Shown piece after piece: positions 1,505 to 55,951 of a DNA stretch of 64,000 bases (its first letter is position 1; the number at the start of each line of letters is the position of its first letter). The notes below the pieces were generated by a model. That model saw only the letters and a list, made by a program, of their open reading frames with translations. It was not told the origin of the DNA and searched no databases. The translations under genes were made by a program, and so were the position numbers. Origin of the DNA: a virus (Duplodnaviria > Caudoviricetes); IMG/VR virus record IMGVR_UViG_2609460236_000001, positions 15,766 through 79,765 of that record; one strand, 5' to 3'.

Positions 1505-1653
1505 AAAATTCCTTCAAATGTTAGCTGTTTATGCGTCTGTTTCTGCTTCTGCTTCTGCTCTCTCGCCGTGGTGGTGGACACGTCGAGGAATAAGATCGTA
1601 CCTTCGTGATACTAACTACACAATGCTGCTCTATACGATAGATCGCGCCCTCC

Positions 1654-3099
1654 TTACGCGAATTCGGCCATCGAGATCTTCTGATCAGTAGCCTCGGTTG
1701 AATCGAACATTTCCTCTTCCTTCTGCCGGCGCTGTTCCGACAACCTGAAGACTTCCTTCGTCGGGTCGACGAGGTTTGCATCACGCGACTTGTTCTCGAT
1801 GATCTGCATGATCCGCTGGTCGATGGAGTCGCGATACTCCAGCACGTAGATCCGCAGCGGTCTCGCGCGCTTGCCACGGATGCCCCGGCGATACGCCTGC
1901 ACGAATGAGTCGTCCATGTAGTTCAGTGAAGTGAAGACCATCGTTTCAAGGTGGTGCCAGTTGAAGCCGACACCGGCCGTATCCGGCGATGCAACCACGC
2001 AGTCGAGATCACCGCGGCGAAACGCCTCGTCGATGCGTGCCCGCTGCGTCGATGACACGTGGCCGTTGATCAACGCAGTGCGCAGGCCCATCGACTTCGC
2101 AATGGCGACGATGCGCTCTTGCTCGGGCACGAGCGCGGCGAACACCGCGATCGGTTCCCCGGACACAACCGCGTCCGCAAAGTGGATCTTCAAGCGCTCG
2201 TCCTTGCCGGTCGTCTCACCCTTGGCCAGCCCGAAGGTCTCGGGGTGCGCCATGATCTGCCGGCAACGCATCGCATTGACGGCGGGCGACTGGCCTTCAA
2301 GGAACTCGTCTTCCAGCTCAACGAGCGCCATTTCCTCCATCTCCTCGTACGCCTTGCGCTGCTTCGGCGACATGTCGCACAGCTCGGTGACGATGACCTT
2401 CGCTTCGGGGCCGTGAACCTCTTCGAAGGTGTGGCGCACGGCCACGTGCTGAAGGATCTGGCCAAGTCTCTGATGGTTGTGCCATCCGATCGTCGTGCCA
2501 TACTCGTCCTGAAGTCGGTGTTGGGCCAGGAATGCACCGTACGTGCCGTAGAAGCGCGGCTCGATCACCTGTAGCGCGGGGTACGCACTCGCGAGCGTGC
2601 CCTTGATGATCGTGCCCGTCATGGCCATGAAGCGCTCGATGCTCCGCATCGCGATGTACATGTTTTGCGTCCGTCCCGAGTCGTGGCCCGAGTAGCCAAG
2701 GTGCCACTCGTCGAAGATCGCGGCGTTCAACTGGGGGTGCCATTGCTTCATCCGTTGCCAGTCGTCGGAGAAGCGCTGGAACCCCATGATGAATACTTTC
2801 GCATCTTCGTTGCGCATCTGACGCTCGCGCCGTTTCGCCTCACCGTCGATGATCTGGATCTCACGAGGATGAAAGTTCGTGAATTCAAGCAGCTCGTCCT
2901 TGTTCTTCCGCAGTAGCGACATCGGCATGACGAAGTACGACTTGAATCCCAGCTCGTCCCACAGGTACTGCGTGTACATGCAGGCCGAGCCAGTCTTCTG
3001 CGTCGCCGGGTCCGACAGGTTCATACAGCGAGGCGTCATGATGTAGAAAGCGAGATCCGCGATCTGGTGCTCGCGCGGCACTTTCTTCTCGATCGTCAT
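1654..3099 (-). CDS. SF2 (SNF2-like) DNA helicase
   Basis: DEWH (motif II), MTGT (III), SPDTAGVGFN (V), QAYRRGIR (VI); motif I reads DPATQKT. Confidence 0.85.
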   Translation of the reverse strand: MTIEKKVPREHQIADLAFYIMTPRCMNLSDPATQKTGSACMYTQYLWDELGFKSYFVMPMSLLRKNKDELLEFTNFHPREIQIIDGEAKRRERQMRNEDAKVFIMGFQRFSDDWQRMKQWHPQLNAAIFDEWHLGYSGHDSGRTQNMYIAMRSIERFMAMTGTIIKGTLASAYPALQVIEPRFYGTYGAFLAQHRLQDEYGTTIGWHNHQRLGQILQHVAVRHTFEEVHGPEAKVIVTELCDMSPKQRKAYEEMEEMALVELEDEFLEGQSPAVNAMRCRQIMAHPETFGLAKGETTGKDERLKIHFADAVVSGEPIAVFAALVPEQERIVAIAKSMGLRTALINGHVSSTQRARIDEAFRRGDLDCVVASPDTAGVGFNWHHLETMVFTSLNYMDDSFVQAYRRGIRGKRARPLRIYVLEYRDSIDQRIMQIIENKSRDANLVDPTKEVFRLSEQRRQKEEEMFDSTEATDQKISMAEFA

Positions 3100-3383
3100 T
3101 TGTTCCTGCTCCTATCTCGAAAGTCCCAACGTTGCCATTCGTTATCCGGCAGCTCACTCTTGACCTGTCTGCCTGCCCACTTTGCGAACGTCTCACGTGT
3201 CACGACCGGATAACGTCGTCCGATTCCCACGGCGGGACCGTCATAGGTGATCGCACCGAGAAAGTTGATGTGGATGATCACCCGGTCGTTCACAAACCCG
3301 TTGGCGTTTGAAGGACGCTTTGCGCGCCACACCTGCCCAACGTGGAATGTCTTGCTTTCTTCCAGTGTTGTCCTATCGTTCAT
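3096..3383 (-). CDS. hypothetical protein
   Basis: ATGA overlap with the helicase start. Confidence 0.65.
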   Translation of the reverse strand: MNDRTTLEESKTFHVGQVWRAKRPSNANGFVNDRVIIHINFLGAITYDGPAVGIGRRYPVVTRETFAKWAGRQVKSELPDNEWQRWDFRDRSRNK

Positions 3384-3414
3384 TTCGATTCTTCGCTCCG
3401 ATTAGGAGGTCGTC

Positions 3415-3582
3415 ATGAATTGGCTCTGCATCAAGTGCCACCTTGAATTCCCGTTCGATGCCGAAAAAGTCGGAATCGACTCGTTCGGCATCTACGTGTT
3501 CTGCCCACACTGCGGCCGGCGCAACAAGCTCATCAACATCGGGAAGCGCGGCCATATCGTTCTTCAGCAGACGGGCACGTAA
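3415..3582 (+). CDS. small zinc-ribbon protein (55 aa), antisense to neighbours
   Basis: AGGAGG SD at 3404-3409; MNWLCIKC...VFCPHCGRRN (2x CxxC); fills the gap between two minus-strand genes; below the ORF track cut-off. Confidence 0.8.
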   Translation: MNWLCIKCHLEFPFDAEKVGIDSFGIYVFCPHCGRRNKLINIGKRGHIVLQQTGT

Positions 3583-3586
3583 CGGA

Positions 3587-5299: not shown

Positions 5300-5413
5300 G
5301 TTTCGATCTCTTATAGATTGAAGGTTGCTGTTCAGGTGGTGGTGACACCCGTTGCTACGGTGAGCCTTTACGGAAAGCGTGGTGGTGGGGCGCTTACCGT
5401 GAGGCTTTACTGC

Positions 5414-5883: not shown

Positions 5884-6146
5884 GCCTTCACCTTCGTGCG
5901 TCGGAGTTCATCGCGCAGGCGCTTCAGGCGCGCGATCTGCTTCTTGGCCAGTTGGCCAGAGTTGATCGTGTTCGCGACGGCCGAGTACCACGTATCACGT
6001 GAAATCGGGGACTCGGTGCCTTGGTCGTCGGCGACCTTCACGTTTGAGAACTTGCGGAGTGCTTCGCCGGTCTTGACCAGTGCGTCGACAGCTTTGGGTA
6101 CATCGGCCAGGGGGTGAGGTCTCGCCTCTGTGGTGGTGATATTCAT
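5880..6146 (-). CDS. hypothetical protein
   Basis: likely start MNITTT at 6146 (ATGA overlap). Confidence 0.6.
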   Translation of the reverse strand: MNITTTEARPHPLADVPKAVDALVKTGEALRKFSNVKVADDQGTESPISRDTWYSAVANTINSGQLAKKQIARLKRLRDELRRTKVKA

Positions 6147-8515: not shown

Positions 8516-8923
8516 TTACTGCGTCTTCAGCAGCGTCGGTTGGAGCTTGTAGTGCTTCGAGAGGTACGTCAGGATCGCATCGCCATGCTCCGCCAGGTTG
8601 GCCAGCAGTTGCTCTTCGGTCGCTGCGACCGGCAGAGCGTAACCTTCGGTGATCACGTTGCCGTCCGCGCCCTTCACCGGCTCGATGTGAACCGGTTTCA
8701 CGCCGTGCAGCATGAAGTCAACGATCTTCTTCAGCGACGTGGTGCGTTCGGCGACGAACGCTTCACGAGCCTTCTGCTGCTCCTGGAAGCGGGTTTCGTC
8801 CGCGGCCGACCAGTTCGATGCAGCCTTCGGAGCGCCGCGCAGCGCGCGCGGGGACTTGCCGTCATTGCCGCCTTTATTCTTCTTCGGAGCAGCGGAGTTC
8901 TTGGTCGTGGTGGTGGGTTCCAT
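8516..8923 (-). CDS. hypothetical protein
   Basis: AAGGA SD, host-like codon usage, MEPTTTT start. Confidence 0.7.
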   Translation of the reverse strand: MEPTTTTKNSAAPKKNKGGNDGKSPRALRGAPKAASNWSAADETRFQEQQKAREAFVAERTTSLKKIVDFMLHGVKPVHIEPVKGADGNVITEGYALPVAATEEQLLANLAEHGDAILTYLSKHYKLQPTLLKTQ

Positions 8924-8984: not shown

Positions 8985-9365
8985 TCAGGTACGGCCTCTC
9001 ATCGACACGGGTAGCAATCCCGCGGCGATGAGATGGTTCAGGACAACGGCCGGCGTAGAAACCGGGAACGTCCTGACACATTCGCTGAGACCCAGTGCGA
9101 TGGCATCGATGGCCTTTTTACGCACAGTCGCAGCTTCAGCCTCGCTGTGTCGCGGGAGGTAAGGCACGAGCGCGCGGCAAATCTGCTCTGCCCGCTCGAT
9201 CAGGCCGTCCGTGATGTCGGTCTCGCTGATGTCGCGATAAGCAAACGTGCTCACGACGGCTTCGACAGACGCCCGCTGATGGGCCTCTACTTCTTCCTTG
9301 CGCGATGCCAGTTCGCGCAGCAGACGCTCGTCGTCGTCCGTCCAGGTTGTGGTGGTGGTGGTCAT
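8985..9365 (-). CDS. hypothetical protein
   Basis: MTTTTTT start, protein-like ORF. Confidence 0.65.
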   Translation of the reverse strand: MTTTTTTWTDDDERLLRELASRKEEVEAHQRASVEAVVSTFAYRDISETDITDGLIERAEQICRALVPYLPRHSEAEAATVRKKAIDAIALGLSECVRTFPVSTPAVVLNHLIAAGLLPVSMRGRT

Positions 9366-12316: not shown

Positions 12317-12350
12317 CGTTGTTGTGGTGGTGGTTTGTTAGCAGATTCGG

Positions 12351-12384
12351 TGAACGAGGCGCGTGGCCAGACGCGCCTCGTTCA
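12351..12384. repeat. 14-bp perfect inverted repeat overlapping a palindromic operator copy
   Basis: TGAACGAGGCGCGT-ggccag-ACGCGCCTCGTTCA. Confidence 0.85.
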
Positions 12385-12394
12385 ACTTGAACTT

Positions 12395-12625: not shown

Positions 12626-12647
12626 GGTGATTACCTCGGTGTGGTGG

Positions 12648-12920
12648 TTATGCTTTCCGCTCGATACAGAGGAGGTAGCGAATCTCCCCGACGCGCGTCG
12701 CCATAACTGCGGTGAAAAGATTTGTACTAAATTTCGAGTCGCGCATTTCTGCCGGCCTACGGCTGGCGGGGGTATTGATGGTCCGCATCAACTGCGGATA
12801 GCCTTCAACAGTCGTTTCTATGTAGTGGCGTTCGCCTACTTCCATCATGGATAGCATTTCGTTCCATGATCCGGCTCTTACCCCGTAGGACTTTCGGGGG
12901 CTAACGTCCATCTTTCTCAT
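12648..12920 (-). CDS. hypothetical protein
   Basis: packed ORF. Confidence 0.6.
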   Translation of the reverse strand: MRKMDVSPRKSYGVRAGSWNEMLSMMEVGERHYIETTVEGYPQLMRTINTPASRRPAEMRDSKFSTNLFTAVMATRVGEIRYLLCIERKA

Positions 12921-12923
12921 CTT

Positions 12924-14080: not shown

Positions 14081-14083
14081 GGG

Positions 14084-14473: not shown

Positions 14474-14475
14474 GA

Positions 14476-15602: not shown

Positions 15603-15678
15603 GGTGTGTGGTGGTGATGGGGGGTATAAAAAAGAGCGCACTGGCCAGAGCGCACTCTTCCTTAATCAACCGGCTGAA

Positions 15679-16041: not shown

Positions 16042-16075
16042 GATTTCTCCTTGTACTTTGTAAGGTGATTCTACG

Positions 16076-16820: not shown

Positions 16821-16832
16821 GTGTTGATCCTT

Positions 16833-16846
16833 GGTTCAACTTGCAC
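16833..16846. promoter_or_regulatory. palindromic repeat GGTTCAACTTGCAC (putative operator)
   Basis: one of at least 8 copies in 12.3-24.2 kb; contains the stop codon of 16836..17126. Confidence 0.65.
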
Positions 16847-17580: not shown

Positions 17581-17591
17581 ATTTTTTCACC

Positions 17592-19168: not shown

Positions 19169-19194
19169 GTTTTGATCCGTGGTGGTGAATCGTT

Positions 19195-19413: not shown

Positions 19414-20054
19414 GCTGGCACTCCCTCGCGCTCCTCACGCACCCTGTCGTAGCTCGGGTCGCTGTACTTCGCGAAGAGATGCGGGAACGCTTCCTCGATT
19501 CGTCGACAGTTCGACATGTCAGCGTTGATCCATGCGTGGGCGATCTTTCGGGCGAACTCGCCCGCAAAGTCCCGCATGTTGAATGCCATCCGTTGCCGAT
19601 CCGCGTATGGTCGCGATGAGATCGGATGCGGACGCTGCTTCAGGCACATGCGACCATGCTGTGCGTACATGGCTGCGAGACGCTGTTCGTGGGTCTCCTG
19701 CATACCTGCGAAATGCTCGAGCATCGCCGTCAGGTGGAGAATCACGTCACGTTCGTTGAGGGATTCGGCTCGATCGGTTACGGTCCGCTGGTCCTCCAGC
19801 TCGTAATACCAGGCCTTGCGCAGACGCGGGCCGTCCTCGTGGTTCTTGATGACCATGCCGCACTGCTTGGCCATGTTGTCGATGAGCACGTCGAGCGGCA
19901 GGTTCACGTCGCGTTGTTCATCGTTCAGTTGCTCGAACACGCTTGCAGTAAGCACGATCTGCAATGCACGTTCGACGTAGGGTGCGCGCTGGCCAGCATC
20001 GCTCATCATCTCTTCGAAACTTTCAAACGGGCCGTAGGTGGTGGTGTTGCCCAT
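19410..20054 (-). CDS. hypothetical protein
   Basis: start MGNTTT after AAGGA SD. Confidence 0.7.
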   Translation of the reverse strand: MGNTTTYGPFESFEEMMSDAGQRAPYVERALQIVLTASVFEQLNDEQRDVNLPLDVLIDNMAKQCGMVIKNHEDGPRLRKAWYYELEDQRTVTDRAESLNERDVILHLTAMLEHFAGMQETHEQRLAAMYAQHGRMCLKQRPHPISSRPYADRQRMAFNMRDFAGEFARKIAHAWINADMSNCRRIEEAFPHLFAKYSDPSYDRVREEREGVPA

Positions 20055-20666: not shown

Positions 20667-20981
20667 CTACCCCTGGCAAGGTTGCGACTGGGAATGCTGG
20701 GTGGCCTGCTGTACGAACTCCAACCCGTCGAGTTCGGCCCTGCCACTCTTGATCTGATCAAGGATCGTCTCGACGTGCCGGAGGTTGTTAATGACCCCGT
20801 CGACGATCTTCATAAGCGGCTCGTCCTGCAACGCAACGCCGCACGACGCCTTCGCATACTCGTCGTTGATGATCTGCGCCAGGTTGTCGGGCAATACCAC
20901 GGTCACTTCGTGGCGCAGTGCCTCGACGTAGTTGGTGAACTGCCGGCCATCGGCCGTCACATATGTCTCGATAGTCTTCAT
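20667..20981 (-). CDS. hypothetical protein
   Basis: start preceded by CCACCACC. Confidence 0.65.
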   Translation of the reverse strand: MKTIETYVTADGRQFTNYVEALRHEVTVVLPDNLAQIINDEYAKASCGVALQDEPLMKIVDGVINNLRHVETILDQIKSGRAELDGLEFVQQATQHSQSQPCQG

Positions 20982-21020
20982 GGTGGTGGGTTCTCTTCAG
21001 GGAATGCAGGCCGATCTATG

Positions 21021-21177: not shown

Positions 21178-21585
21178 TCAAGTTGAACCTATCGGGTATG
21201 GGTCGACTTCCTGAAACAGCGCGTGGTGAAACACATCGTGCAGGTAGGCCTTGATGCTGTTCCGGTTACGGCCAGTGATCCGGATAACAGCCCCCGTGTC
21301 GAGCGATGGCGTGACGATCACGTGGTGTTCCGACCATCCGTCGTACATCCCGTGTCGGTTCATGTGGTGAAAATCAGCTTGAAATACCAGCTTGTTGCTC
21401 TTGCATTCGTCTTCGAGCAGTTGCGTGCCCGAGTCAAGGCCCGAGCCTGAAGGAAGCATGTCGAGCAGCTTTCCGAGACGTACTTTGTGGGTTGGAAGGA
21501 CAGGGCTGCGCGCGGACTTGCAGCGCTCGATAGTCGCGAGCGTGGACGCAATCGCGGCATAAAGCGGCGTGGTGGTGGTGATCAT
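21178..21585 (-). CDS. hypothetical protein
   Basis: LPSGSGLDSG, FHHMN.HG.YDGW blocks; the stop lies inside the palindrome at 21175-21189. Confidence 0.7.
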   Translation of the reverse strand: MITTTTPLYAAIASTLATIERCKSARSPVLPTHKVRLGKLLDMLPSGSGLDSGTQLLEDECKSNKLVFQADFHHMNRHGMYDGWSEHHVIVTPSLDTGAVIRITGRNRNSIKAYLHDVFHHALFQEVDPYPIGST

Positions 21586-25117: not shown

Positions 25118-25262
25118 GACAGGTAAAGTTAACAGAGTGCTTGATGATCTGTGGTGGTGAGTCAAGCATGACGAGTTGAGAGACTTGTCTCAGACAGTTG
25201 AGGTGGCCAGCCTCTCTGTCAGCCCTCTTCAGGGGCATGTTTTGATCAATGTTAGCTGTTAG

Positions 25263-27869: not shown

Positions 27870-28410
27870 TCGAAGACTCTTGTGTGGTGGTGGACGCAGC
27901 GTCATCGTCGGAGCGACGAGTGGTGACTACGCTGCGCAGGCGTTCCATGACCTCGGTGCGCTGATCCGGCGACATGCACTCTTCCATGATGCTCAGGACG
28001 GTGTCTTGGAAGTCGCGGATCTGCTTGATCCCCAACGCGCGCTCACGAGCTGTCACCAGACGTTCGAGGAGGCTGGTCGCCGTGCGGAAGTACGCCATGC
28101 GCTCCGTCTGATCGGATTGAGGGATGGTCTTGCCGTAGTTCTTCAGGTCGGTGAAGACTCGATACAGGTCGATGTCGAGACTCGAATCGATCTGGTCCTC
28201 GGTGATCTCGAAATCCGCTATGTCGACCTTCTTTTGTTCAGGTTGAACCTGACGATGAATCAGGTTCGAGATCACTTTCTTGAAATCGACACCGTAGGGG
28301 CATGCTTCATCGGCGAGGTAGGCCGCGTTCTCCGTGGCCAAGGTAAGGATCATCTTGATCGACCACTCGACATGATCAGTAATGACCGGATAATGAAAGT
28401 CGTTGCTCAT
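27859..28410 (-). CDS. helical hypothetical protein, possible terminase small subunit
   Basis: adjacent but divergent to terL and overlapping the primase start; function inferred from position only. Confidence 0.4.
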   Translation of the reverse strand: MSNDFHYPVITDHVEWSIKMILTLATENAAYLADEACPYGVDFKKVISNLIHRQVQPEQKKVDIADFEITEDQIDSSLDIDLYRVFTDLKNYGKTIPQSDQTERMAYFRTATSLLERLVTARERALGIKQIRDFQDTVLSIMEECMSPDQRTEVMERLRSVVTTRRSDDDAASTTTQESSNEN

Positions 28411-28615: not shown

Positions 28616-30400
28616 ATGCCAAACCAGTATCTCCAACAGCTCTACGAACGCGCAGCGAACCGCTGGTCGAAAGACCGCGCGTCGATGACGTATGGCGACT
28701 GGATCTGCGAGAACACCACGCACAACGACAGAGCCTTCTCGTTCAAGCGTTACCCCTTCCAGAAGCAGATCGCGGACGACATGCACGACAACCTCGACTG
28801 CATCAAGCCGTCGCAGGTTGGTCTGACCGAAGTGCAGATCCGCAAGGTGCTCGCGTTCATAGCTCGCAACCGTGGCGTAAACGTCATCTACACGCTGCCC
28901 GACGAGACTATGATGGAGCGTATCTCGGTCGGCCGCGTTCGACCGCTCGTCGACGAGGAACACGCATTCAACCTTGAATCCCTCGGTGGCAAGAAGCCGA
29001 CGCGCACTAAAGAAATCATTCAGGTCGGCAAGAGCTTCCTCTACCTCACCGCTGCCGGCGAAGGGGCCGCGACATCCATCTCCGCAGACATGGTCGTGAA
29101 CGACGAAGTGGACTTGACCGACCAGTCGATGCTTGCCCTCTTCAACTCGCGACTTCAAGGCTCGGACTGGAAACTGAACCACCGATTTTCGACGCCGACC
29201 TTCCAGGACTACGGCATCGACCAGACATTCAAGGTCAGCGACCAGCACGAGTACATGCTCAAGTGTGCTTGCTGCAACCACTGGCAGGTGCCCGACTTCG
29301 AGCGCCCGTTCGTCCGAATCCCTGGCCTTCCTGACAGTCTCGACTTCGAGGAAATCGACGAAGCGATGATCGACGCCGGCGCGATCGACCTCGACGCCGC
29401 CTCGATCCACTGCGAGCACTGCGGTGCGCCCCTGAACCTTGGTAACCATGAGCGCCGTGCATGGGTGCCAAAGTACCCGCAACGCAAGCATGCGCGCGGC
29501 TACCGCGTGCGCGCCTTCTCTACCGAGCGCCTACCGCCCAAGTACATCCTGCGGCAGCTCTTCATCTACAAGCGCAAGGACTTCATCCGAGGCTGGTACA
29601 ACACCGTGCTTGGGCGCTCCCACACCGGGGGCGACCAACGCCTGAACGACGCGGATATCAACGCAGCCTTCACCGAGTTCCAGCTGGTCCGTCCGTCGAG
29701 CAACACGATGCCGGCGTGGCTCGGCATCGACATCGGCCAGACCTGCCACATCGTCGTCGGCGAGGGCTACGACGTGTCGTCGATCCACGTGGTCGAGTTC
29801 CTGACCGTGCCAGTCGGCCGCTTGCTGGAGGAGATCGCACGCATCCTGACCGCGTATCGCCTCGTTGCCGGTGGCTGTGACCGTCACCCGTACACACCGA
29901 CCGCCGAGGCGGTGCGTGACGTGTCACATCGCCGCGTCCTGCCGAACGAGTACCGTGGCTCCAAGGAAATCAATCTCGTCAAGGACCCTGCCGGCGAGAT
30001 CACGCACATGCAGTCCAACCGGACGCTGCTCCTCGACGAAGTGGCCCGAGCCATCCGGCTGCGCAAGATCAAGTTCTCCGGTTACGGGACGCACCGCTCG
30101 GCGATCGTTGAGCACCTGAAAGACATGGTTCGCAATGAAGAACCAGAGAAAGAAGCGGAATGGAAGAAACTGAACGGCAACGATCACTTCTTCCATGCGT
30201 TGGGTTTCATGTTGTCTGCCGTGAAGCTGCACACCACCAACGCATCCGCCCTTTTCAACACGGAAACGCGCAGCGTCATCCAGATCGTCGGCGCGACCGT
30301 GGGCATGAACGAGACCAGTCAACTCATGCTGGCCAATACCAAACACACCACTGGCAACTTGATCTATGGCAACGACCACCACCCCCAACTCTTCTTCTAA
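28616..30400 (+). CDS. terL: terminase large subunit (lambda gpA-like)
   Basis: IKPSQVGLTE, DEVD, FSTPT, CxxC..CxxC insert, GIDIG nuclease motif; start MPNQYL. Confidence 0.9.
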   Translation: MPNQYLQQLYERAANRWSKDRASMTYGDWICENTTHNDRAFSFKRYPFQKQIADDMHDNLDCIKPSQVGLTEVQIRKVLAFIARNRGVNVIYTLPDETMMERISVGRVRPLVDEEHAFNLESLGGKKPTRTKEIIQVGKSFLYLTAAGEGAATSISADMVVNDEVDLTDQSMLALFNSRLQGSDWKLNHRFSTPTFQDYGIDQTFKVSDQHEYMLKCACCNHWQVPDFERPFVRIPGLPDSLDFEEIDEAMIDAGAIDLDAASIHCEHCGAPLNLGNHERRAWVPKYPQRKHARGYRVRAFSTERLPPKYILRQLFIYKRKDFIRGWYNTVLGRSHTGGDQRLNDADINAAFTEFQLVRPSSNTMPAWLGIDIGQTCHIVVGEGYDVSSIHVVEFLTVPVGRLLEEIARILTAYRLVAGGCDRHPYTPTAEAVRDVSHRRVLPNEYRGSKEINLVKDPAGEITHMQSNRTLLLDEVARAIRLRKIKFSGYGTHRSAIVEHLKDMVRNEEPEKEAEWKKLNGNDHFFHALGFMLSAVKLHTTNASALFNTETRSVIQIVGATVGMNETSQLMLANTKHTTGNLIYGNDHHPQLFF

Positions 30401-32028: not shown

Positions 32029-33156
32029 ATGGCTAAGAGCGTTCCGATCACACAAAGAATTCAGAATCTGATCACCCGCAATAGCGGGGGTGATCAGGTC
32101 GACTTCAGCGCGATCGTCGTGTTCGAGGCCTCGGTCACTAACACGCGCCCGTTGACGAAGCCCGGTTCGATTTTCGACAAAGGCCAGATCCAGGTCGACA
32201 CGCTCAACCAGATGGCCAGCTACCTCAACAGTGGCGGCTTCGTCCCCCTTCAGACCCTTCACCCGAACGGAGACGAACTCCCCCTCGGTCGTTTTTTCTA
32301 CGGTGAAGTCCTCCCGTCGACGCTCGGTGACGGATCGAGCGAACTGGTCTGTCTTTTCTACTTGCCGAAAGACGACTCGAATGTCCCTAAGCTCGAAAAC
32401 GGAATTATCGACGAAGTCAGCGTCGGTTTTGTCGGTCAACAACTGCTCTGTTCGAAATGCAGCTGGGACTGGCGCGGTCCGGAAGCCAGCTTCTCAAACT
32501 TCTACGACCGCGTGTGCGGGAATGATCACGTGCTCGGCGAAGACGGCGCGTATCTGAAGATCAACGGGCTGGATCGCTGGACTGAAACATCGCTCGTGTC
32601 GAAAGGCGCGGCGAACAACGCGAAGATCTTGGGCCGCACGAAGCAGCGGCTCGGCCAAGAGCAGTACGACCGCTTGGCAGCTTCGGGCGTCGCACCCGAG
32701 CATTTGATGCTGATTGCCACCACCACCACATCCCCTCGGAGTCCGAAGACGATGGATAAGGAACTGATCGAAGAACTGGCCAACCTGAAGGCTGGCCAAA
32801 AGATCCACGAACACACGATTTCGCTGAAAGACGCAGAAATCACGGCGCTCAAGACGACCAACGAGGCGTTGAGCACCGAGAACAAGACGCTGAAGGAAGG
32901 CACCGAGCTGAAGGCTGCGCAAACCTCGCTGGCCGAGTCGCAAGCGAAGGTGACGGAGCTGGAAGCTTCGGCAAAGACTGCTGAAACCGAGGTCGCCGAT
33001 CTGAAGGCGAAGCTCGCGACCGCAGAAGCGCAGGTTGAAGTCCTGAAGGCGGGCGCTGGCAACGGCGGCCGCTCACAAGGTTCCGACACCGGCACTGGTG
33101 CAACGAAGGGGACGACGCTTCACGCGTCGAGCGCGTTCAAGTCCGCGCCGCGTTAA
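32029..33156 (+). CDS. prohead protease with C-terminal scaffold
   Basis: LH, EVSVGF, ETSLV protease-like motifs; coiled-coil C-terminal third. Confidence 0.8.
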   Translation: MAKSVPITQRIQNLITRNSGGDQVDFSAIVVFEASVTNTRPLTKPGSIFDKGQIQVDTLNQMASYLNSGGFVPLQTLHPNGDELPLGRFFYGEVLPSTLGDGSSELVCLFYLPKDDSNVPKLENGIIDEVSVGFVGQQLLCSKCSWDWRGPEASFSNFYDRVCGNDHVLGEDGAYLKINGLDRWTETSLVSKGAANNAKILGRTKQRLGQEQYDRLAASGVAPEHLMLIATTTTSPRSPKTMDKELIEELANLKAGQKIHEHTISLKDAEITALKTTNEALSTENKTLKEGTELKAAQTSLAESQAKVTELEASAKTAETEVADLKAKLATAEAQVEVLKAGAGNGGRSQGSDTGTGATKGTTLHASSAFKSAPR

Positions 33157-33613: not shown

Positions 33614-33704
33614 CGGCAGATGACCTCGCCCACCACCGGGGTCATCTGCTGGAAAAGCTGCAAAACCCTCGTCAGTTCCGACCACCACCGGGCTGACGAG
33701 GGTT
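33614..33704 (+). promoter_or_regulatory. twin RNA hairpins presenting CACCAC loops in the capsid leader
   Basis: GCAGATGACC/GGTCATCTGC and AACCCTCGTCAG/CTGACGAGGGTT stems with CCCACCAC and ACCACCAC loops. Confidence 0.7.
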
Positions 33705-38952: not shown

Positions 38953-39354
38953 ATGTCGACCACCACCACGCGACAAGCCCCGCCCGCAAAACTCGACGTC
39001 ACTCTGGCCGGCGAGAAGAAGAGCTTGTTCATGTCTTTTGGCTTGCTCAACGAACTGTGCCGGGGCATTGGCGATGCTCAAGGCGCATTGCAAGTCACGG
39101 CAAACTCTCAACTTCGTGATTTCGCCTTGATGGTTGTGCTTTCCGATCGAGACGAAGAAGGCAACGTCGTCAAGCCGATCAACGTCAATCGAATCGAAAT
39201 GTCCATCGAAGACGGTGAACGTTTGCTCGACTGGGTGGCGCAGCACGCAACTGATTTTTTCGTGCGGACGATGGAGAGAATCGTCACGGGACACAAGGAC
39301 AAGGAAACCCGGTTGAAGGCCCTGAAAGAGTTGGCCGAAAACCCGGCAAGCTAA
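38953..39354 (+). CDS. tail assembly chaperone (gpG-like)
   Basis: position; start MSTTTT. Confidence 0.7.
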   Translation: MSTTTTRQAPPAKLDVTLAGEKKSLFMSFGLLNELCRGIGDAQGALQVTANSQLRDFALMVVLSDRDEEGNVVKPINVNRIEMSIEDGERLLDWVAQHATDFFVRTMERIVTGHKDKETRLKALKELAENPAS

Positions 39355-42600: not shown

Positions 42601-45530
42601 TCCAGGCAAATGCCTTTTCTGGCCCACGCGACAAGATCGAACAGTCCAGCGGTGTGACCCTGGTGACCTCTGAACCGTACTACGACGCCGCCGGTGTCGG
42701 CGTCGCTCAGGGGCAAGTTCGATTCAACGCCGTGCCTGGTGGGCGTCGATCCGCAGGCTATCTGCCAGTCGACGAGGGCGTGAACAAGGACAACATCCCC
42801 GCAATCATCCAGTACCTGAAGGATGCGGGCGCTGACGTGTCTGGCAAGGTCCAGGCGGGCTTGGTGGACGCAGCTGGCATCAACGGACAGCCGCATGATC
42901 TGGATGCTCAACGGGCCTTCTCGACGGCCGTGAATAATGCGATTGCGAAAGCAATTCAGGCGCGCAGTGGGCAAAATGCCTCGGATGCCGAGAAGGCGAA
43001 TTCGTATGGCGAGGAGCAAGCACTGTCCAACTTGCTCGCCAATCTCCAGAAGGTCACGAACGGCCTGCAAACGGCACAAGGCTATCAGCATGATCTGGAC
43101 CGTGCCAACAAGACCCTCGCCAGCCAGCGCTACGCCGAGACGAACCCGGCCGCGCAGGAGATCGTCAGAGCGGTCTCGGCGGCGGTCACTCGTACAACAG
43201 GCGTACTCGGCTCCCCTGAATCGCGCCTTGACTCACTCTGGACGGCTCTGAAAACGCAGGAGAGCGGAAATCGGCAGTTCGACAGCAATGGGCGACCAGT
43301 CACGTCGAACAAAGGGGCTATCGGTATCGCCCAGGTGATGCCCGACACAGCCCCCGAAGCTGCACGGCTGGCAGGCCTACCGTGGGACGACAACCGCTAC
43401 CGAAACGACCCGACGTATAACGAGGCGATCGGCCGTGCGTACCTCAACGCTCAGTTAAAGAAGTATGGCAACAACTCGACACTCGCGCTCGCGGCCTACA
43501 ACGGTGGCCCCAGCTACGTCGACAGGCTGCTGGCTACTACGAGCGGGGACGGCCGTTCGATGGATTTCCGCAACCCAACCGGCGTCACCGAAACCGAGTT
43601 CGTCAACGCGCTCAAGCCCGAGACACGCAACTACGTGCAGCGCATCGGCAGCGGCGCTGGTGCGTTCGGCCGCTACCAGAATCTCTTGAACAACTCGGGT
43701 CTTGCGAGCCAAGGCGCGGCCAACAGCCAGCTCATGCGTCAGCTCCAGTCACAGCTAGACGCATCCAGTGACGACATCCAGAAAGCATTTCTGCTCGCGC
43801 AGATCGACCAGCTAAAAGTCGCGCAGAACCACATCCAGCGCGAAATCGAGAATGCGCGTGCCGAGGCCGCCCCTTCCCTGAAAGCGACCAATTCCGCGGC
43901 TCAGCGCGCGCTTCAAGCTCAGCTGGCCGAAGTTGATACGCAGGCTGGTATCACCCGTGACCCGGAGAAGGCACGGCAGCTCGGCGACGTCGCCGTCGAG
44001 TTGATCAAGAATCAGTACAACCGTACGATCGACACGCTGAAGAAGACCAGCCCAACCCTTCAGATCGGCGATCACCGTGACTACGCAGATGACGTGAAGC
44101 AACAGCTTCAGTCGTTGCAGGACGAGATGGACGCGAAGGTTCGCTCGCAGATCGACAAGAACACGGAACGCGTGCGCAAGCTCAACGAGCAAATCAAGGC
44201 CGCGCAGTTTAAGGAGGACGAAGATCGGGCGCGAATGGCGTTCAACGCTTTCATGACCACGCTCAAGGGCGACGAGAAGACACGAACAAGCAATCAGGCA
44301 ATCGAGCTGAAACGCAACTCGTACCCGGTCGTTGCCGATCAGGCAGCGTCGACATACATGAGTGATCCACGCTACTCGGCCCAGTTCAGCCAGGTTCAGC
44401 GTCAGTCGCTCAGCATCAAGGCAGCGGCCGATCAGGACGTCGTAGACGCGCGCAATCTCGTCACGTATCAAGCGAACATCACCGAATTGCGCGGCGAAAT
44501 CGAGCAATTGCGGAAACAAGTCAACGCCCGTACGGCAATGCTTGGCGAGGAAGGTGATGGCGCTGGTTCTCCCGCGACCGGCCTGTACTCGCAGCTCGCT
44601 GCGGCAAAGGCCGACCCCGCGAAACGGGAGGAACAGGCACGCCTCGAAGCGACGATCGTGCGCCTCACCACGGAACGCACTGCGCAGCAGGGAGAACTCA
44701 ACGCGCTGCAAGACAAGTCGAACGCACTGGTGGAGAGTCAGGAACGTCTGCAGGAGAAGCTGGCAGCGAAGACCACCACCGGCTCCTTCTCACTGATGCA
44801 GGGCATCAACGAGGCGAACAAAAACTTTCTCGACACACACAATGCGACTTCGATGGCAATCGACGGGTATGCCAACATGCTGAACGGGACCGACAACGCG
44901 TTGATCCAGTTCTTCGACGACCTGACCACCCACTCTAAAACCGCTGGTCAGGCCGTCAAGGATTTCGGCGTGTCATTCCTGAAGATGGTCATGCAGATCC
45001 TCGAACAACAAGCCGCGCTCATGCTTATCAAGGGCTTCCTGAGCATGTTCGGGACAGCTGCGTCCGCTTCCGCAGCGCCCACGGCCACAGGTGGCTTTGA
45101 TATGCCCGCCACCGGCACCGCACTCGCGGTCCAAGGCGGCTCCGTCAGCAACGGCCTCGTCTCCCGCTCGGCAGGTGTGAAGCGCTTCGTGTCCGGCGGC
45201 AGCGTGACGGGCGGGATGCCCGGTCGTGACTCCGTACATGCTCTTTTGAAAGAGGGAGAGTATGTGCTAAACGATGGCGCCGTGTCGACGGTCGGCACCG
45301 ACTTCCTCGACAACCTCAACGCACACAGCAACCGAGTCGTCTCGAAGAGCACGCCAGCACCGAAGCCCGAACGCGAGAAGCAGCCGCAGCACGTCAATGT
45401 ATGGGTCGTTGCCCCGGATCAAAAGCCACAGATGGGTCCGAATGACGTCGTCGCCGCGATTAGCAACGACATCGTCACGGGCGGCTCTACGAAGAAACTG
45501 ATCAAGCAAGTCGCACTAGGTCAAATGTAA
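39666..45530 (+). CDS. tail tape measure protein with lytic transglycosylase (SLT) domain
   Basis: 1954 aa helical; TP901-like TMP core; QES...GAIGIAQVMP...LAAYNGG...ETRNYV SLT motifs at about 43240-43645. Confidence 0.92.
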   Translation: MAGENQVQQGQLDLSLGPKIFQDAQSLSTLLTEIFKRLNDISGIAKQISIPGVSSTDPSQSNILAAIGGLQRDMRTMLATVRSGGPQAQINQALVQGTRSQALFGSDNRAQLEQLTALNAAAERRVLLERQLQVAQEANREYSTSQMSAATRIYEITARITEAQQRYKQAIIDSDTATQASAKRDMRDGQQRLDQLKQEIDLRERGARVRLGRALDSGKNVDVAQAQLAIVNADKADLSTSLRTTVGAQQRAERDAAKALSNERKQLEKDWTAALTEERSRQAAIEKAWNQAIVEDRQRTQRADATFERQLRSAQVEDHKRARDAEASFDKTWNSAHLENLKRDKATERKFLADWDAAILEDHRRSKTTQKKLEDDWDNAIRENRRRQQQADEAAARAAAQFGPDRATLMRLRDAQAESNRRNSPDFQDQQDSATRARRYRQTFGDGGASIALTQTALLANYSVTRGVQTAFTSALQNTIQYEEALAHLKTITSATDLQLASLASTIETVSNATRYSATDLTKAAAALSETGVTTNQLGVALRGVADLATATGEDFNKTVNTVTGSLGAFKMSASDTVQVTNMIAQAVNSSRLTMDKLKTSIETAGETASEAGVSFKEMLSATVAITNTGTASGATLGGGLRQLLIDLEKPSQKFKATLDQLGLTQQDINVKSQGLYGALKNLKDAGFTAADAMQAFEARSASAFTALSGNLAEMNDFSSTLNHTDAAARANAEQMETLGAQYDRFKNQTSLLVGDGFKPLLDGLKNILDMTSSAEAALKSYGGVTETVGTLIGTGALAVGLKYVGGLLGGIAGMTFGGFEAAAGVAAMGGQIGLVIGAIAGLTAGVVYLVSKLNDSGKAFEEQRTAVNAAKDAVTSSKQSYDSIGRQIDTLRYKMTALNEHPEQLKREVDDLSVQFEKYGVTLDKDAIGKTENLIIALQRLQGELGKRYELNTSVLSAQLDVMVERAKESTGQEAGKFQANAFSGPRDKIEQSSGVTLVTSEPYYDAAGVGVAQGQVRFNAVPGGRRSAGYLPVDEGVNKDNIPAIIQYLKDAGADVSGKVQAGLVDAAGINGQPHDLDAQRAFSTAVNNAIAKAIQARSGQNASDAEKANSYGEEQALSNLLANLQKVTNGLQTAQGYQHDLDRANKTLASQRYAETNPAAQEIVRAVSAAVTRTTGVLGSPESRLDSLWTALKTQESGNRQFDSNGRPVTSNKGAIGIAQVMPDTAPEAARLAGLPWDDNRYRNDPTYNEAIGRAYLNAQLKKYGNNSTLALAAYNGGPSYVDRLLATTSGDGRSMDFRNPTGVTETEFVNALKPETRNYVQRIGSGAGAFGRYQNLLNNSGLASQGAANSQLMRQLQSQLDASSDDIQKAFLLAQIDQLKVAQNHIQREIENARAEAAPSLKATNSAAQRALQAQLAEVDTQAGITRDPEKARQLGDVAVELIKNQYNRTIDTLKKTSPTLQIGDHRDYADDVKQQLQSLQDEMDAKVRSQIDKNTERVRKLNEQIKAAQFKEDEDRARMAFNAFMTTLKGDEKTRTSNQAIELKRNSYPVVADQAASTYMSDPRYSAQFSQVQRQSLSIKAAADQDVVDARNLVTYQANITELRGEIEQLRKQVNARTAMLGEEGDGAGSPATGLYSQLAAAKADPAKREEQARLEATIVRLTTERTAQQGELNALQDKSNALVESQERLQEKLAAKTTTGSFSLMQGINEANKNFLDTHNATSMAIDGYANMLNGTDNALIQFFDDLTTHSKTAGQAVKDFGVSFLKMVMQILEQQAALMLIKGFLSMFGTAASASAAPTATGGFDMPATGTALAVQGGSVSNGLVSRSAGVKRFVSGGSVTGGMPGRDSVHALLKEGEYVLNDGAVSTVGTDFLDNLNAHSNRVVSKSTPAPKPEREKQPQHVNVWVVAPDQKPQMGPNDVVAAISNDIVTGGSTKKLIKQVALGQM

Positions 45531-51937: not shown

Positions 51938-51963
51938 TCGTCTTGCTAACGGACACCACCACG

Positions 51964-53442
51964 ATGCAGAACTACACACAGATTCCCGACAGCCAGCGGG
52001 TCTCCGACTCGCTCGCGCCGCTGCTCAACAACGACCTCACGGCGATCTCGCGTAACTCTGGCGACTCCTTTCCGATCACTGGACTCCAGATCGGTATGCC
52101 GTACCTCAGCACGTCGCAGAACAAGCTCTTCCGGCTTACGAGCCTGACGCCGGTCACATGGGTGGTCGAAATCGACTACAACCGCTCGATCGCATATCAG
52201 GACAACCTCGATCAGGTTGCGGCTTCCGCAAACAGCCGCGTCCTCAAAAGCGGCGACAATATGACCGGCCCGCTCACGCTCTCGGGAGATCCGTCTCAAG
52301 CACTGCACGCCACGCCGAAGCGGTACGTTGACGCTCAGGCGCAGGCTGCAACCACCGCAGCGAACAACCGCGTGTTGCGCTCGGGCGACCAGATGACCGG
52401 CCCGCTCACGCTCTCGGGCGACCCGTCACAGCCCTACCACGCCGCGACGAAGAACTACGCCGACTACCTCTACAACTCACTGAACAACGCCAAGCTCGGT
52501 CGCAACGGCGACACCGTGTCCGAGCTGTACAACAACGGCTGGTTCCGTTCGAACGGACAGGTCGGCTGGTACAACCAGACGTACGGTGGCGGCATCCACA
52601 TGACCGACACCAGCTATGTCCGCGTATATGGCGGCAAGGGCTTTGCGACCGACACGCATACGCTCGAACAGGGCACGGGCGGGATCTGGACATCGCGCTA
52701 TGGCTGGTTGGAGAACTACTTCGCCGGAAAGGGTGCGGAAGACCGTCTCAATTCGGTTGGCACGACCGATGGCGGCGACGGATGGCACCCCGGAGGCTGG
52801 CCGTGGATCCCAAACGGCGTGATTGCACCACAGTCCTTCTACCTCCAGCGCTCGGGAAATCAAGTCCAGCTCGTGCGCGTTTGGGGCAACTGCAACTGCA
52901 ACTGCGCATGCACGTGCTTCCCGGCCGGCACTCGAATCATGATGGCTGACGGGAGCTGGAAGTACGTCGAGCAGATCCAGATTGGCGACATCGTCATGAC
53001 ACCGCTTGGGCCGGAAGCCGTGCTCGACGTCGAGACCCCACTGCTGGGCGATCGGAAGATGATTTCGTTCGAAGATCGTTCATTCTTCTGGACCGATGAT
53101 CACGCATTCTGGACGCGTCGCGACGGCGTGCAGTCGTTCGGCGTAGTAGACAAACAGTCGTGGTTGCGTGGCGTCGAACTGGGTGTAGTAAAAGGCCTGC
53201 CGAACAATGATGACGTTCGCGTTCTGGACGACCGCTGGGATGAATTCGCCCACATCGACGGCTGGCAACGCAAGCGCGTGATGAAACACGACATGAACCG
53301 CAATACGAAGGTCTATCTGCCGATCGTCGGTGGATGCCACATGATCATCGCCGAAGGTTATGTTGTCTCGGCCGGCGCGAATGGGTATGACTTCGATTAC
53401 AACACCTTCGAATGGAAAGGACTCAGCCATGCTGGTGCATAA
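51964..53442 (+). CDS. tail fibre with Cys-rich segment and C-terminal Hint (intein-like) autoprocessing domain
   Basis: 2x GD.MTGPLTLSGDP...HA..K.Y.D fibre repeats; GWFRSNG..GWYN.TYGGGI.M.D adhesin motif; NCNCNCACT then CFPAGTRIMMADG (Hint block A, Cys at 52915), TDDH (block B). Confidence 0.88.
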   Translation: MQNYTQIPDSQRVSDSLAPLLNNDLTAISRNSGDSFPITGLQIGMPYLSTSQNKLFRLTSLTPVTWVVEIDYNRSIAYQDNLDQVAASANSRVLKSGDNMTGPLTLSGDPSQALHATPKRYVDAQAQAATTAANNRVLRSGDQMTGPLTLSGDPSQPYHAATKNYADYLYNSLNNAKLGRNGDTVSELYNNGWFRSNGQVGWYNQTYGGGIHMTDTSYVRVYGGKGFATDTHTLEQGTGGIWTSRYGWLENYFAGKGAEDRLNSVGTTDGGDGWHPGGWPWIPNGVIAPQSFYLQRSGNQVQLVRVWGNCNCNCACTCFPAGTRIMMADGSWKYVEQIQIGDIVMTPLGPEAVLDVETPLLGDRKMISFEDRSFFWTDDHAFWTRRDGVQSFGVVDKQSWLRGVELGVVKGLPNNDDVRVLDDRWDEFAHIDGWQRKRVMKHDMNRNTKVYLPIVGGCHMIIAEGYVVSAGANGYDFDYNTFEWKGLSHAGA

Positions 53443-54139: not shown

Positions 54140-55488
54140 CCACCTTTCGCCTGAAGACGGTCGACGCCTCTGGCGTCGGCCGCGACTTTTTTTACAACAA
54201 CCAGCGCAGCACCCTCACCGACGACCGCGGACTCGACGTGGTGACCGAACGTCCGAGCGAGCCACGCGCGCCGGCCGCGCACCCTGGCCACAAAGACCGC
54301 GTCATTCGCACGCTGAAGGTCCAGCTGGGCCTCTCGTGCAACTACAGCTGCGACTACTGCTCGCAACGATTCGTACCGCACGCGGACCAGACCAACCCCG
54401 GCGACGTCGACGTGTTCATGTCCCGCCTCATGGCGAACTGCTATCTCACCGAGGACGCGACGGTCGAGTTTTGGGGTGGCGAACCGATGGTGTACTGGAA
54501 GACGCTCAAACCGCTCGCAGAGAGGCTGCGGATGCGTTACCCCGGCATCACCCTTCGGATGATCACGAACGGCTCCCTGATCGACCACATGAAGGCCGGA
54601 TGGCTCATTTCGATGGGGTTCACGATCGGCATCTCGCACGACGGACCAGGGCAGAAGGCACGCGGTCAAGACCCCCTCGATAACCCCTTGACGCGCGAAG
54701 CGATCCTCATGCTGTACCAGCGGCTGCGTCCACTGAACCGGATCTCTTTCAACGCGATGCTGCATAGGGACAGCACGTCGCGGCGCGCGGTGCGCGACTA
54801 CTTCATCAAGCTGACGGGCGACACCGACGTGCCGATCGGCGAAGGCATGTTCGTCGACGCGTACGACGAAGGTGGCCGCTCGATGTCGTTTCACGACGCG
54901 CACGAGCATGTCCGCTACCGCGCTCGCGCCTTCGACGAGCTGAAGAGCGGTAATGCGCTCAACTTCGACAGCGTCACGCAGAAGATCGTGGACTTCGGCG
55001 AGTCTGTGGTCACTCGGCGTGAAGCACGCACGCTCGGTCAGAAGTGCGGCAGCGACCGCGCTGACACGCTGACGATGGATCTGAAAGGCAACGTGCTGAC
55101 GTGTCAGAACGTGTCGGCAGTAGCGGTAGCGCCGAACGGCCAGCCCCATCTCGCCGGCAACGTGCAAGACATGAACGCAGTTCAGCTCAAGTCCTCGCGC
55201 CACTGGTCGACGCGAGAGCACTGCAACGCGTGCCCCGTACTTCAGCTCTGCAAGGGCAGCTGCATGTTTCTCGAAGGAGACTTGTGGGATGTCACCTGCG
55301 AGAGTGCATACAGCGACAACGTCGTATTCCTTGCCACGGCGCTCTATGAGCTGACTGGCTGCACCCTTCAGCGTATCGAGCCGTTGACCGGCACGCTGCC
55401 TGAGCATCGCCAGATCGTCTTCGGACCTCTGGCCAACAAGCGGACCACCACCCGCAAAATCATTCAGATCAAAACGGAAACGCCATGA
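54136..55488 (+). CDS. radical SAM enzyme with SPASM domain
   Basis: CNYSCDYC (54337-54360), FWGGEP, TNGSL, ISHDG; C-terminal KCG...GNVLTC...CNACPVLQLCKGSC...C. Confidence 0.93.
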   Translation: MTTFRLKTVDASGVGRDFFYNNQRSTLTDDRGLDVVTERPSEPRAPAAHPGHKDRVIRTLKVQLGLSCNYSCDYCSQRFVPHADQTNPGDVDVFMSRLMANCYLTEDATVEFWGGEPMVYWKTLKPLAERLRMRYPGITLRMITNGSLIDHMKAGWLISMGFTIGISHDGPGQKARGQDPLDNPLTREAILMLYQRLRPLNRISFNAMLHRDSTSRRAVRDYFIKLTGDTDVPIGEGMFVDAYDEGGRSMSFHDAHEHVRYRARAFDELKSGNALNFDSVTQKIVDFGESVVTRREARTLGQKCGSDRADTLTMDLKGNVLTCQNVSAVAVAPNGQPHLAGNVQDMNAVQLKSSRHWSTREHCNACPVLQLCKGSCMFLEGDLWDVTCESAYSDNVVFLATALYELTGCTLQRIEPLTGTLPEHRQIVFGPLANKRTTTRKIIQIKTETP

Positions 55489-55826
55489 ACGATCAACAAA
55501 CCACTCCCCTGATGAACGAAGGCCAGATGATGCACCACGTGCTGACGCTACAGCGCAACGAGCTGGCCGATCGCCTCGCTCACGCAAGCGTCGCAGCTGG
55601 TCAAGCTGAGCAACAAGTGCAAGCACTGGCCACGGCGAATGCAACCATGCAATCTGCGCTCGACGAGGCGAACGCTGCACTCGAAGCGACGAAGAGTGCG
55701 CTGGTCGCGAGCCAGTCGCGCGCTGACCAGCTTCAGAAGAACCTCGACGACGCCAACCGGAAGCTTGCTGCGCAGCAGCGACCGATTGAAGGCGCGCCCA
55801 CGTCGGTTGATCCGATACCCGCATAA
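55485..55826 (+). CDS. coiled-coil protein
   Basis: A/Q-rich heptads; ATGA overlap with rSAM. Confidence 0.7.
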   Translation: MNDQQTTPLMNEGQMMHHVLTLQRNELADRLAHASVAAGQAEQQVQALATANATMQSALDEANAALEATKSALVASQSRADQLQKNLDDANRKLAAQQRPIEGAPTSVDPIPA

Positions 55827-55842
55827 GCACGCGAATAGGTGC

Positions 55843-55867
55843 TAAGTGAACCAATTAGGTTCACTTA
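55843..55867. promoter_or_regulatory. perfect inverted repeat TAAGTGAACC-N5-GGTTCACTTA upstream of lysis promoter
   Basis: direct reading; followed by AAAACTCT TTGTGT-N18-TAAAAT (55889-55918). Confidence 0.6.
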
Positions 55868-55951
55868 TCATTTCCTGTGCAAAACTCTTTGTGTCTGCGT
55901 AAACCCCAACCTTAAAATTCTCGGCACTCACCACCACCACACGAGTCCGAG

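Follow-up and report, generated by a model that had tools for sequence, protein, structure and literature searches.

Locus and motif

The window analyzed here is a 64,000-nucleotide (nt) stretch of DNA (G000:C1:197331-261330; positions below count from its first nucleotide) in which many genes carry a tract of the form (CAC)n, with the core CCACCAC, at or near their translation starts. It lies within a prophage of ~80 kb (about C1:183000-262000) whose guanine-plus-cytosine (GC) content is 58-60%, compared with 67% in the 8.6-Mb host. An integrase gene is located ~14 kb to the left of the window, and an excisionase-like gene immediately past its right end. The direction of the genes changes from the minus strand to the plus strand at about 28.4 kb. 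The nearest named phages are the Achromobacter phages JWF and 2-1, with a capsid protein identity of 74% and a syntenic genome of ~80 kb. An Rfam scan of the window at the gathering score gave 0 matches, and a tRNA scan of the window found none.

The hexamer CACCAC occurs 78 times in the window, compared with 34.3 +/- 5.4 in dinucleotide shuffles (maximum 48; 0 of 100 shuffles reached 78). We define a run as a maximal period-3 (CAC)n tract of at least 9 nt, unless stated otherwise. There are 30 runs in the 80-kb prophage and 196 in the remaining 8.55 Mb, so that they are 16-fold denser in the prophage. All 23 runs within the window are on the coding strand: below 28 kb there are 14, all minus-strand, and above 30 kb there are 9, all plus-strand. 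Prophage-wide, 23 of the 30 runs are within +/-75 nt of the start of a longest open reading frame (ORF) on the same strand, where the null fraction is 0.089 (binomial P 7e-19). For host runs, 18 of 194 are near starts, versus 11 of 300 random sites.

A preliminary description of this DNA had listed 23 positions with their strands, and each holds a CACCAC-type run as stated there. It had also proposed that the motif concentrates at starts, and codon-preserving shuffles agree. Coding sequences contain 62 sense copies of CACCAC versus 22.4 +/- 4.7 after shuffling (maximum 39 in 300), and the first 20 codons contain 24 versus 1.8 +/- 1.4 (maximum 6). The 60 nt located 5′ of starts have 23 sense copies and 0 antisense copies. 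In an unbiased scan, the three hexamers most enriched at starts are CACCAC, CCACCA and ACCACC, with P-values of 1e-13 to 1e-14 in the prophage and 1e-11 to 1e-21 in a relative called G401 (see below); words resembling the Shine-Dalgarno (SD) sequence rank below them. The excess of CACCAC tracts at starts is real and far above chance.

Sequences flanking the tracts have an information content of at most 0.33 bit per position. The element is therefore the tract itself, and not a portion of a longer dispersed repeat. After curation, its distance to the start codon ranges from 94 nt upstream to ~20 nt downstream.

Distribution among related phages

We found 27 related loci in IMG/VR. No relatives were present in 399 scored genomes of the host's family, nor in a scan of genome contigs. 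All 12 loci with 79-99% capsid identity carry the tract, with 2.8-6.1 runs (here at least 8 nt long) per 10 kb and 1-5 start-proximal copies each. The 15 loci with a capsid identity of at most 74%, which include that of JWF, have no start-proximal copy. Over its genome, JWF has 8 runs of at least 9 nt, one of which is near a start, and the hexamers are not enriched. Five members of the motif-bearing clade could be followed over whole records, and have 14-30 copies of the 9-mer and an identical strand switch.

Two full relatives were compared, namely G405 (96% capsid identity) and G401 (82%). Their runs are near starts in 22 of 27 and 20 of 28 cases, respectively, and the motif is associated with 25 of 90 and 21 of 82 genes. 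A start-by-start comparison of the window's prophage with G401 reveals that the tract is kept at many orthologous starts although its flanks have diverged, and that there are also lineage-specific gains and losses. The tract is a feature of one clade of JWF-related phages. The preliminary description had called it genome-wide, a term that has to be narrowed: ~25% of the prophage's genes (22 of 88) carry it, in a single phage clade.

Action at the level of nucleic acid

All copies within ORFs are in the ACC (threonine) frame, and the N-termini MTTTTTT, MITTTT, MATTTT, MSTTTT and MEPTTTT that were reported earlier are indeed present. Such a frame would be expected of a poly-threonine N-terminal protein tag, and the slippage-like differences in length among relatives would suit a neutral trinucleotide microsatellite without function. 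However, over half of the copies are untranslated, and orthologues can carry the tract either in the leader or in the codons. Gene 21585 (MITTTTPLYAAIA) has an orthologue in G401 that begins with MKPLYQAIA, and there the tract precedes the ATG by 11 nt. The JWF orthologue of gene 8923 has a 15-nt tract upstream. For the primase gene and gene 51964, the start falls 3′ of the tract, as judged from orthologues. The leader of gene 12625 has a tract of 8 nt in the window, versus 48 nt, or (CAC)16, in the orthologous leader of the relative G403. A second G403 leader (locus L042) has three tracts that run into the ATG, without an SD.

Given that the tract shifts between leader and first codons among orthologues, and varies in length from 8 to 48 nt, it belongs to the nucleic-acid level and has no poly-threonine function. 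Neutral repeats, in turn, are not expected to sit at starts, to be biased to a single strand or to be conserved over relatives of 79-99% identity. We find a protein tag or a neutral microsatellite scarcely credible; both are already contradicted by the positions, the orthologue comparison and the shift between leader and codons.

A signal read on the DNA and oriented with the arms would also belong to this level. Possible roles would be those of a promoter element, of a Chi-like site for recombination or nuclease attenuation, and of a priming signal in the lagging-strand template. The orientation of the tract flips at the divergence near 28.4 kb, which is a possible replication or packaging landmark, and the complement of the tract, GGTGGTGG, presumably resembles the G-rich Chi class. 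Yet a signal of this kind predicts no clustering within tens of nucleotides of start codons, no copies 3′ of the ATG and no partners with weak SDs. Moreover, the flanks have no promoter-like information, and neither the JWF annotation nor the ORFs tested revealed a phage RNA polymerase. We thus judge a DNA-level signal to be very improbable. A G-quadruplex on the template strand was rejected upon inspection, as most tracts have just three CC units.

The (CAC)16 tract of G403 (locus L041, G403:C1:69200-69800) is part of a 5′ leader, at a distance of 15 nt from the ATG, and represents a microsatellite-like expansion.

Copies displayed in hairpin loops

The preliminary description held that the motif is often displayed in hairpin loops, as a conserved loop on variable stems. 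All seven hairpins that it listed fold with the tract in the loop (z scores of -6.2, -4.5, -3.8, -2.8, -2.5, -1.8 and -0.9). In a lenient genome-wide test of loop display there is no excess (7 of 27, compared with a null of 0.235 from other start-proximal positions), and "often" is an overstatement. A strict architecture, defined as a stem of at least 5 bp closing the 8-nt loop NCCACCAC, is nevertheless enriched, with 3 of 61 prophage sites, 2 of 65 G405 sites, 7 of 56 G401 sites and 0 of 32 JWF sites, compared with 11 of 1061 host sites.

Covariation was analyzed in 19 distinct CCACCAC sites from the 140 nt upstream of the capsid start in 12 sources (the window and 11 related loci), taken without selection for pairing. 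The loop positions CCACCAC are invariant in all 19 sites and a G-C pair closes the loop in 18, while the stems are unrelated. In this alignment, 76.8% of the cells pair, versus 30-58% when the 3′ partner is slid. Compensatory two-sided changes occur in 8 of 10 pairs, and 0 of 500 shuffles reached the covariation score. The conserved loop on variable stems is thus confirmed, although for a minority of copies: hairpin display is restricted to this minority, and is supported there by covariation. The G401 orthologue of the KTSC-domain gene 5299 has a 16-bp hairpin with a CCCACCAC loop in place of two tracts, and in the 5-bp hairpin of the tract at 19179..19187 (minus strand), the GGAUC of the SD region is paired.

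A/C-rich sequence, without a U-run, follows the motif hairpins, and in this they differ from intrinsic terminators. Since they are not canonical terminators, they could be elements of mRNA processing or stability, either cleavage sites that separate cistrons or protective stem-loops at 5′ or 3′ ends. Tracts do occur in intergenic gaps that head translational units, and the strongest copies form stable hairpins in the interval that separates the capsid gene from the preceding one. On the other hand, cleavage at the many copies that are within the first codons or adjoin the ATG would destroy the mRNA. The majority of copies are unstructured, and hairpins that confer stability do not need an invariant loop. 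A role in processing or stability is thus quite improbable.

Relationship to translation initiation

Genes with the motif differ from other genes in their start regions. We scored SD pairing against a generic anti-SD core; on this scale, the median for motif genes is -2.9 kcal/mol versus -5.2 for other genes in the prophage, and -1.9 versus -4.9 in G401. Weak SDs had already been remarked upon for several of these genes, and the remark extends to motif genes as a group. A strong SD is found in 12% of motif genes and 40% of others, and the leaders of 15602, 12316 and the G403 locus L042 have none at all. The tract is not itself SD-like, as it lacks complementarity to the generic anti-SD core.

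Start regions of motif genes also fold less stably (-5.4 kcal/mol, compared with -12.4 in other genes). The gap that precedes motif genes has a median of ~57 nt, whereas other genes overlap or abut the preceding gene. Gaps of at most 5 nt occur in 5 of 22 motif genes versus 34 of 66 other genes in the prophage (P 0.025), and in 3 of 21 versus 39 of 61 in G401 (P 1e-4).

The position of the tract, the weaker SDs, the lower structure, the uncoupled genes and the movement between leader and codons argue for a role in initiation at the RNA level, which an enhancer fits best. With about even confidence, we propose that the (CAC)n or CCACCAC tract is a cis-acting mRNA element that promotes translation initiation where the SD is weak or absent. 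Because it consists only of C and A, the tract cannot base-pair internally. It lies in or beside the span covered by the initiating 30S subunit, with some copies kept open in a hairpin loop, and would offer this subunit a single-stranded landing (standby) site, possibly via ribosomal protein S1. The genes served would be those that load ribosomes afresh, uncoupled from the preceding gene. From the sequences, we infer that the tract acts on RNA, that its effect is positive and that the ribosome itself reads it. Since motif genes mostly have no other means of recruiting ribosomes, a purely negative operator is unlikely.

Several observations weigh against an enhancer read by ordinary ribosomes. 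Two of the supporting differences are partly built in: a tract of C and A cannot pair and so weakens folding, and a tract that occupies the SD position necessarily reduces the SD score. Gene starts are those of the longest ORFs from a crude in-house caller. The SDs of JWF orthologues are stronger, as expected (-5.8 versus -2.3 kcal/mol in 4 pairs, and -5.5 versus -0.6 in 6 pairs), yet the comparison involves only these 4 + 6 pairs and is not significant. A generic unstructured enhancer should accept any C/A sequence, and other C/A-only runs are in fact mildly enriched at starts too, including in JWF. However, the core CCACCAC is invariant in the 19 capsid-leader sites, and CAC-type runs constitute 22 of the 35 start-proximal C/A-only runs in the prophage (3 of 21 in JWF), which points to sequence-specific reading. 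Finally, the host scarcely uses the motif at its starts and has it at 16 times lower density, and sister clades on related hosts do not have it. Both facts are odd for a signal to the ordinary ribosome.

Candidate readers

The exact word and the invariant loop, together with the restriction to a single clade and near absence at host starts, leave real room for a sequence-specific reader. The tract could be the binding site of a dedicated trans-acting factor, whether a phage or host RNA-binding protein or a complementary RNA. About 25-30 genes would then form an operator-type regulon whose translation or stability is controlled, by activation or repression. We regard this explanation as possible, if on the unlikely side. 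Conservation of the tract goes beyond composition, as is apparent from the constant loop and compensatory stem changes described above, and the 8-nt, G-C-closed geometry is fixed. The motif is confined to the clade with at least 79% capsid identity (12 of 12 loci; 0 of the 15 more distant loci have start-proximal copies), and a period-3 repeat would suit an oligomeric reader.

A possible partner RNA is a terminator-like hairpin at 23245-23285 (minus strand) that is followed by a T-run. Its loop, GUGGUGG, is complementary to the motif, and the hairpin is conserved in G405. However, it was not seen in G401, and was therefore rejected as a clade-wide partner. In the host's 23S rRNA, GUGGUGG occurs once, near the 5′ end (positions 21-27), in a region not known to contact mRNA.

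Searches for a protein reader gave no candidate among about 50 left-arm ORFs and the clade-specific ORFs (Pfam, PHROGs, Atlas). More broadly, no RNA-binding family was detected among about 60 ORFs with Pfam, 10 with PHROGs and 2 with Atlas, and most of the ORFs have no assigned function. The only families matched in these searches are HTH_31, KTSC, NinX, CCDC90-like, primase-polymerase, SNF2 helicase, terminase, GH19 and radical SAM, and the gene at 51964-53442 has two sub-threshold or borderline matches (Hom_end_hint and Shufflon_N). The ORF at 3415-3582 (plus strand, opposite to the left arm) encodes a basic protein of 55 amino acids with a CxxC...CxxC zinc ribbon, and is present in close relatives and, at a different place, in G401. 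We rejected it as the reader, since it was not found in the motif-bearing G403 and G404 (2 of the 3 more distant clade members searched). It was not found in 5 records without the motif either.

A pure repressor operator would also leave its genes in need of an SD, and most have none. The preliminary description had offered a choice between a control site targeted by a protein or small RNA and an SD-independent enhancer. The enhancer fits best, and neither a clade-wide complementary RNA nor an RNA-binding protein was identified in these searches. More tentatively, we suggest that a clade of temperate, JWF-like siphophages may use CCACCAC as its own sequence-specific, SD-free initiation signal for about a quarter of its genes. 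This signal might be read by a dedicated factor, encoded by phage or host, or through a specific ribosomal contact.

Individual sites

The tracts and hairpins of the window are listed in Table 1.

Table 1. CAC tracts and tract-bearing hairpins in the window
Feature	Position	Strand	Context
CCACCACCAC	1568..1577	-	intergenic, 63 nt upstream of ATG 1504; 8-nt loop (UCCACCAC) of a small hairpin, z -2.5
two tracts	5379-5388, 5335-5344	-	79 and 35 nt upstream of ATG 5299 (KTSC-domain gene)
CACCACCAC	6130..6138	-	within first codons (M N I T T T), ORF start 6146
CCACCACCAC	8907..8916	-	within first codons (M E P T T T T), start 8923
ACCACCACCACCAC	9349..9362	-	immediately 3′ of ATG 9365 (M T T T T T T)
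ACCACCACCAC	12324..12334	-	7 nt upstream of ATG 12316; no SD between
ACCACCAC	12641..12648	-	15 nt upstream of ATG 12625
CACCACCAC	15608..15616	-	5 nt upstream of ATG 15602; without SD
CACCACCAC	19179..19187	-	10 nt upstream of ATG 19168; loop of 5-bp hairpin, z -2.8
CACCACCACC	20037..20046	-	within first codons (M G N T T T), start 20054
CCACCACCA	20981..20989	-	final A doubles as A of ATG 20981
CACCACCACCAC	21569..21580	-	within first codons (M I T T T T), start 21585
CACCACCAC	25151..25159	-	weak 7-bp hairpin, z -0.9; ORF-poor, lower-GC stretch; no clear associated start
CCACCACCAC	27884..27893	-	14 nt upstream of ATG 27869 (primase-polymerase); start from G401 orthologue
ACCACCACC	30375..30383	+	within first codons (M A T T T T) of portal gene homologue, start 30366
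internal tract	32717..32729	+	gene 32029-33156; 22 nt upstream of in-frame ATG 32752 with preceding GGAG
hairpin 1, major capsid leader	33614..33651	+	15-bp stem, loop CCCACCAC, z -4.5
hairpin 2, major capsid leader	33664..33704	+	loop ACCACCAC, z -6.2; tract end 42 nt upstream of capsid ATG 33732
ACCACCACCAC	38959..38969	+	within first codons (M S T T T T), start 38953
in-frame Thr-Thr-Thr tract (exception)	44772..44780	+	deep in tape-measure gene, no nearby start
CACCACCAC	51954..51962	+	1 nt upstream of ATG 51964; start from G401 and JWF orthologues
ACCACCACC	55444..55452	+	32 nt upstream of ATG 55485, within end of preceding gene
hairpin with CACCACCACCAC (55929-55940) in loop	55919..55952	+	tract end 11 nt before ATG 55952 (glycoside hydrolase 19 endolysin), z -3.8
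tract (exception)	59829..59837	+	deep in 937-aa tail gene, no nearby start

The internal tract at 32717 and the ATG at 32752 are both kept in 11 of the 13 loci examined, which suggests a possible nested start in gene 32029-33156. This gene is upstream of the capsid gene, and the nested start may give rise to a C-terminal, scaffold-like product.

Two 8-nt copies of the motif at 37696-37738 (minus strand) appear to be in the wrong orientation. They are just downstream of the Arc-like gene 37786-37980, which is the sole minus-strand gene of the right arm, so that they still follow the local minus-strand transcript.

The motif continues past the range reported earlier, on both sides of the window. 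The excisionase-like helix-turn-helix gene immediately past its right end (about 64032-64289) contains an M-E-T-T-T-T within its ORF that may be its true start, with another tract shortly upstream, and there are at least 5 copies in the 14 kb to the left of the window.

Additional sequence features

A second repeat, (GGTT)CAAGTTGAACC, is partly palindromic and occurs in 46 copies at up to 2 mismatches, compared with 13.8 expected. Exact copies and those with 1 mismatch cluster in the early left arm (window positions 12379-24141), often just before AAGGATCAA-ATG. Examples are at 16833-16843, 19062-19076, 20069-20083, 21175-21189, 22591-22605, 23091-23101 and 24127-24137. The JWF counterpart of this repeat is GGTTCGTAACGAACC, in similar places. 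The repeat may serve as an operator or a promoter, or form a hairpin in leaders. The JWF words AACCTT and CCTTTG were considered as an alternative start motif at the same genes as the CAC tract, and were rejected because they are part of the palindrome GGTTCGTAACGAACC, and thus correspond to the second repeat rather than to the tract.

The word (A)GGATCAAAAC-ATG recurs at many starts, e.g., at 33720-33734, 19168-19180 and 25238-25250. It is an SD variant (AGGA/GGAUC) and is enriched at starts in the prophage and in G401.

The region at 24100-25350 is ORF-poor, has a lower GC content (0.535) and adjoins the homologue of the gene in JWF's terminal repeat. This region may contain the packaging site or genome-end region, or a regulatory RNA.

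Implications

If CCACCAC is a private initiation signal, these phages would have a partly private translation channel in a proteobacterial host. Should the ribosome read the tract directly, it would be a compact SD-independent initiation module for GC-rich bacteria; should a dedicated reader be needed, the tract would define a new post-transcriptional regulon of phages. The tract is also of use in annotation, as it marks true starts such as 27869, 51964, 15602 and possibly the nested 32752. As a natural system, it repeats a single exact C/A word at some 25-30 starts in each genome. Comparative variants are already at hand, and include gains, losses, lengths of 8 to 48 nt, positions in leader or codons, and loop or linear forms.

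Comparison with known systems

In the literature on the motif or on phage JWF, judged by titles, we found no published account of a CACCAC start motif. Known phage translational operators include the MS2-type coat-protein hairpin, the T4 RegA sites and the Com site of Mu mom. They have a known protein reader, and those of MS2 and Com occur at one or few sites per genome. The tract resembles them in being an RNA signal at the start, and its hairpin subclass has a conserved loop and tolerates stem changes. Unlike these operators, it occurs at ~30 sites, is mostly unstructured and has yielded no reader in our searches.

C/A-rich enhancers and standby tails are known from enterobacteria, in GcvB targets (gltI, yifK and dppA) and as CA tails placed before the ribosome-binding site of the MS2 coat gene. 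C/A-rich and ACA elements enhance initiation without strict spacing, whether 45 nt upstream or downstream of the start, and can replace the SD, with S1 suspected to be involved (Yang 2014, PMC3879156). CA tails are described as standby sites that act in a length-dependent manner (Sterk 2018, PMC5934652). The CAC tract is likewise a single-stranded, C/A-only tract in the initiation region. Its position is flexible, over the range given above, and its length varies; by analogy with these elements, it would act without strict spacing and stand in for the SD. It differs from ACA or (CA)n enhancers in being one exact period-3 word. It is also found at about a quarter of the phage's genes and hardly ever at the host's own starts, is confined to a single clade and is sometimes in a fixed 8-nt loop. 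Unlike for GcvB targets, no G/U-rich antagonist RNA was found across the phage clade. So far, C/A-rich enhancers comprise a handful of enterobacterial mRNAs and synthetic leaders, with a mechanism that is not yet clear.

The start-associated sequences (SAS and ESAS) of Cluster K mycobacteriophages are short, asymmetric repeats that occur in one orientation beside the start codons of a subset of genes (PMC3203893). The SAS is conserved across subclusters even at non-homologous genes and is rare in the host. A role in translation initiation was proposed, and its function was stated as unknown in 2011. The same article gives the SAS as a 13-bp word with an SD core, located 3-7 bp before the start and only in the non-structural half of the genome, and reports little hairpin support for the ESAS. 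Compared with this account, the CACCAC tract is similarly oriented and start-adjacent in a subset of genes, and is 16 times rarer in the host. In contrast, it has no SD complementarity, ranges from -94 to +20 and also occurs within first codons, and is found in both arms, including at the genes for portal, capsid and endolysin. In some copies, it takes the form of a hairpin loop on covarying stems. We therefore rejected membership in the SAS family, given the other word, the missing SD core, the variable spacing and the use of both arms. By analogy, the inferred behavior of the CAC tract would be closest to that of C/A-rich translational enhancers, and its genomic pattern appears closest to that of the SAS.

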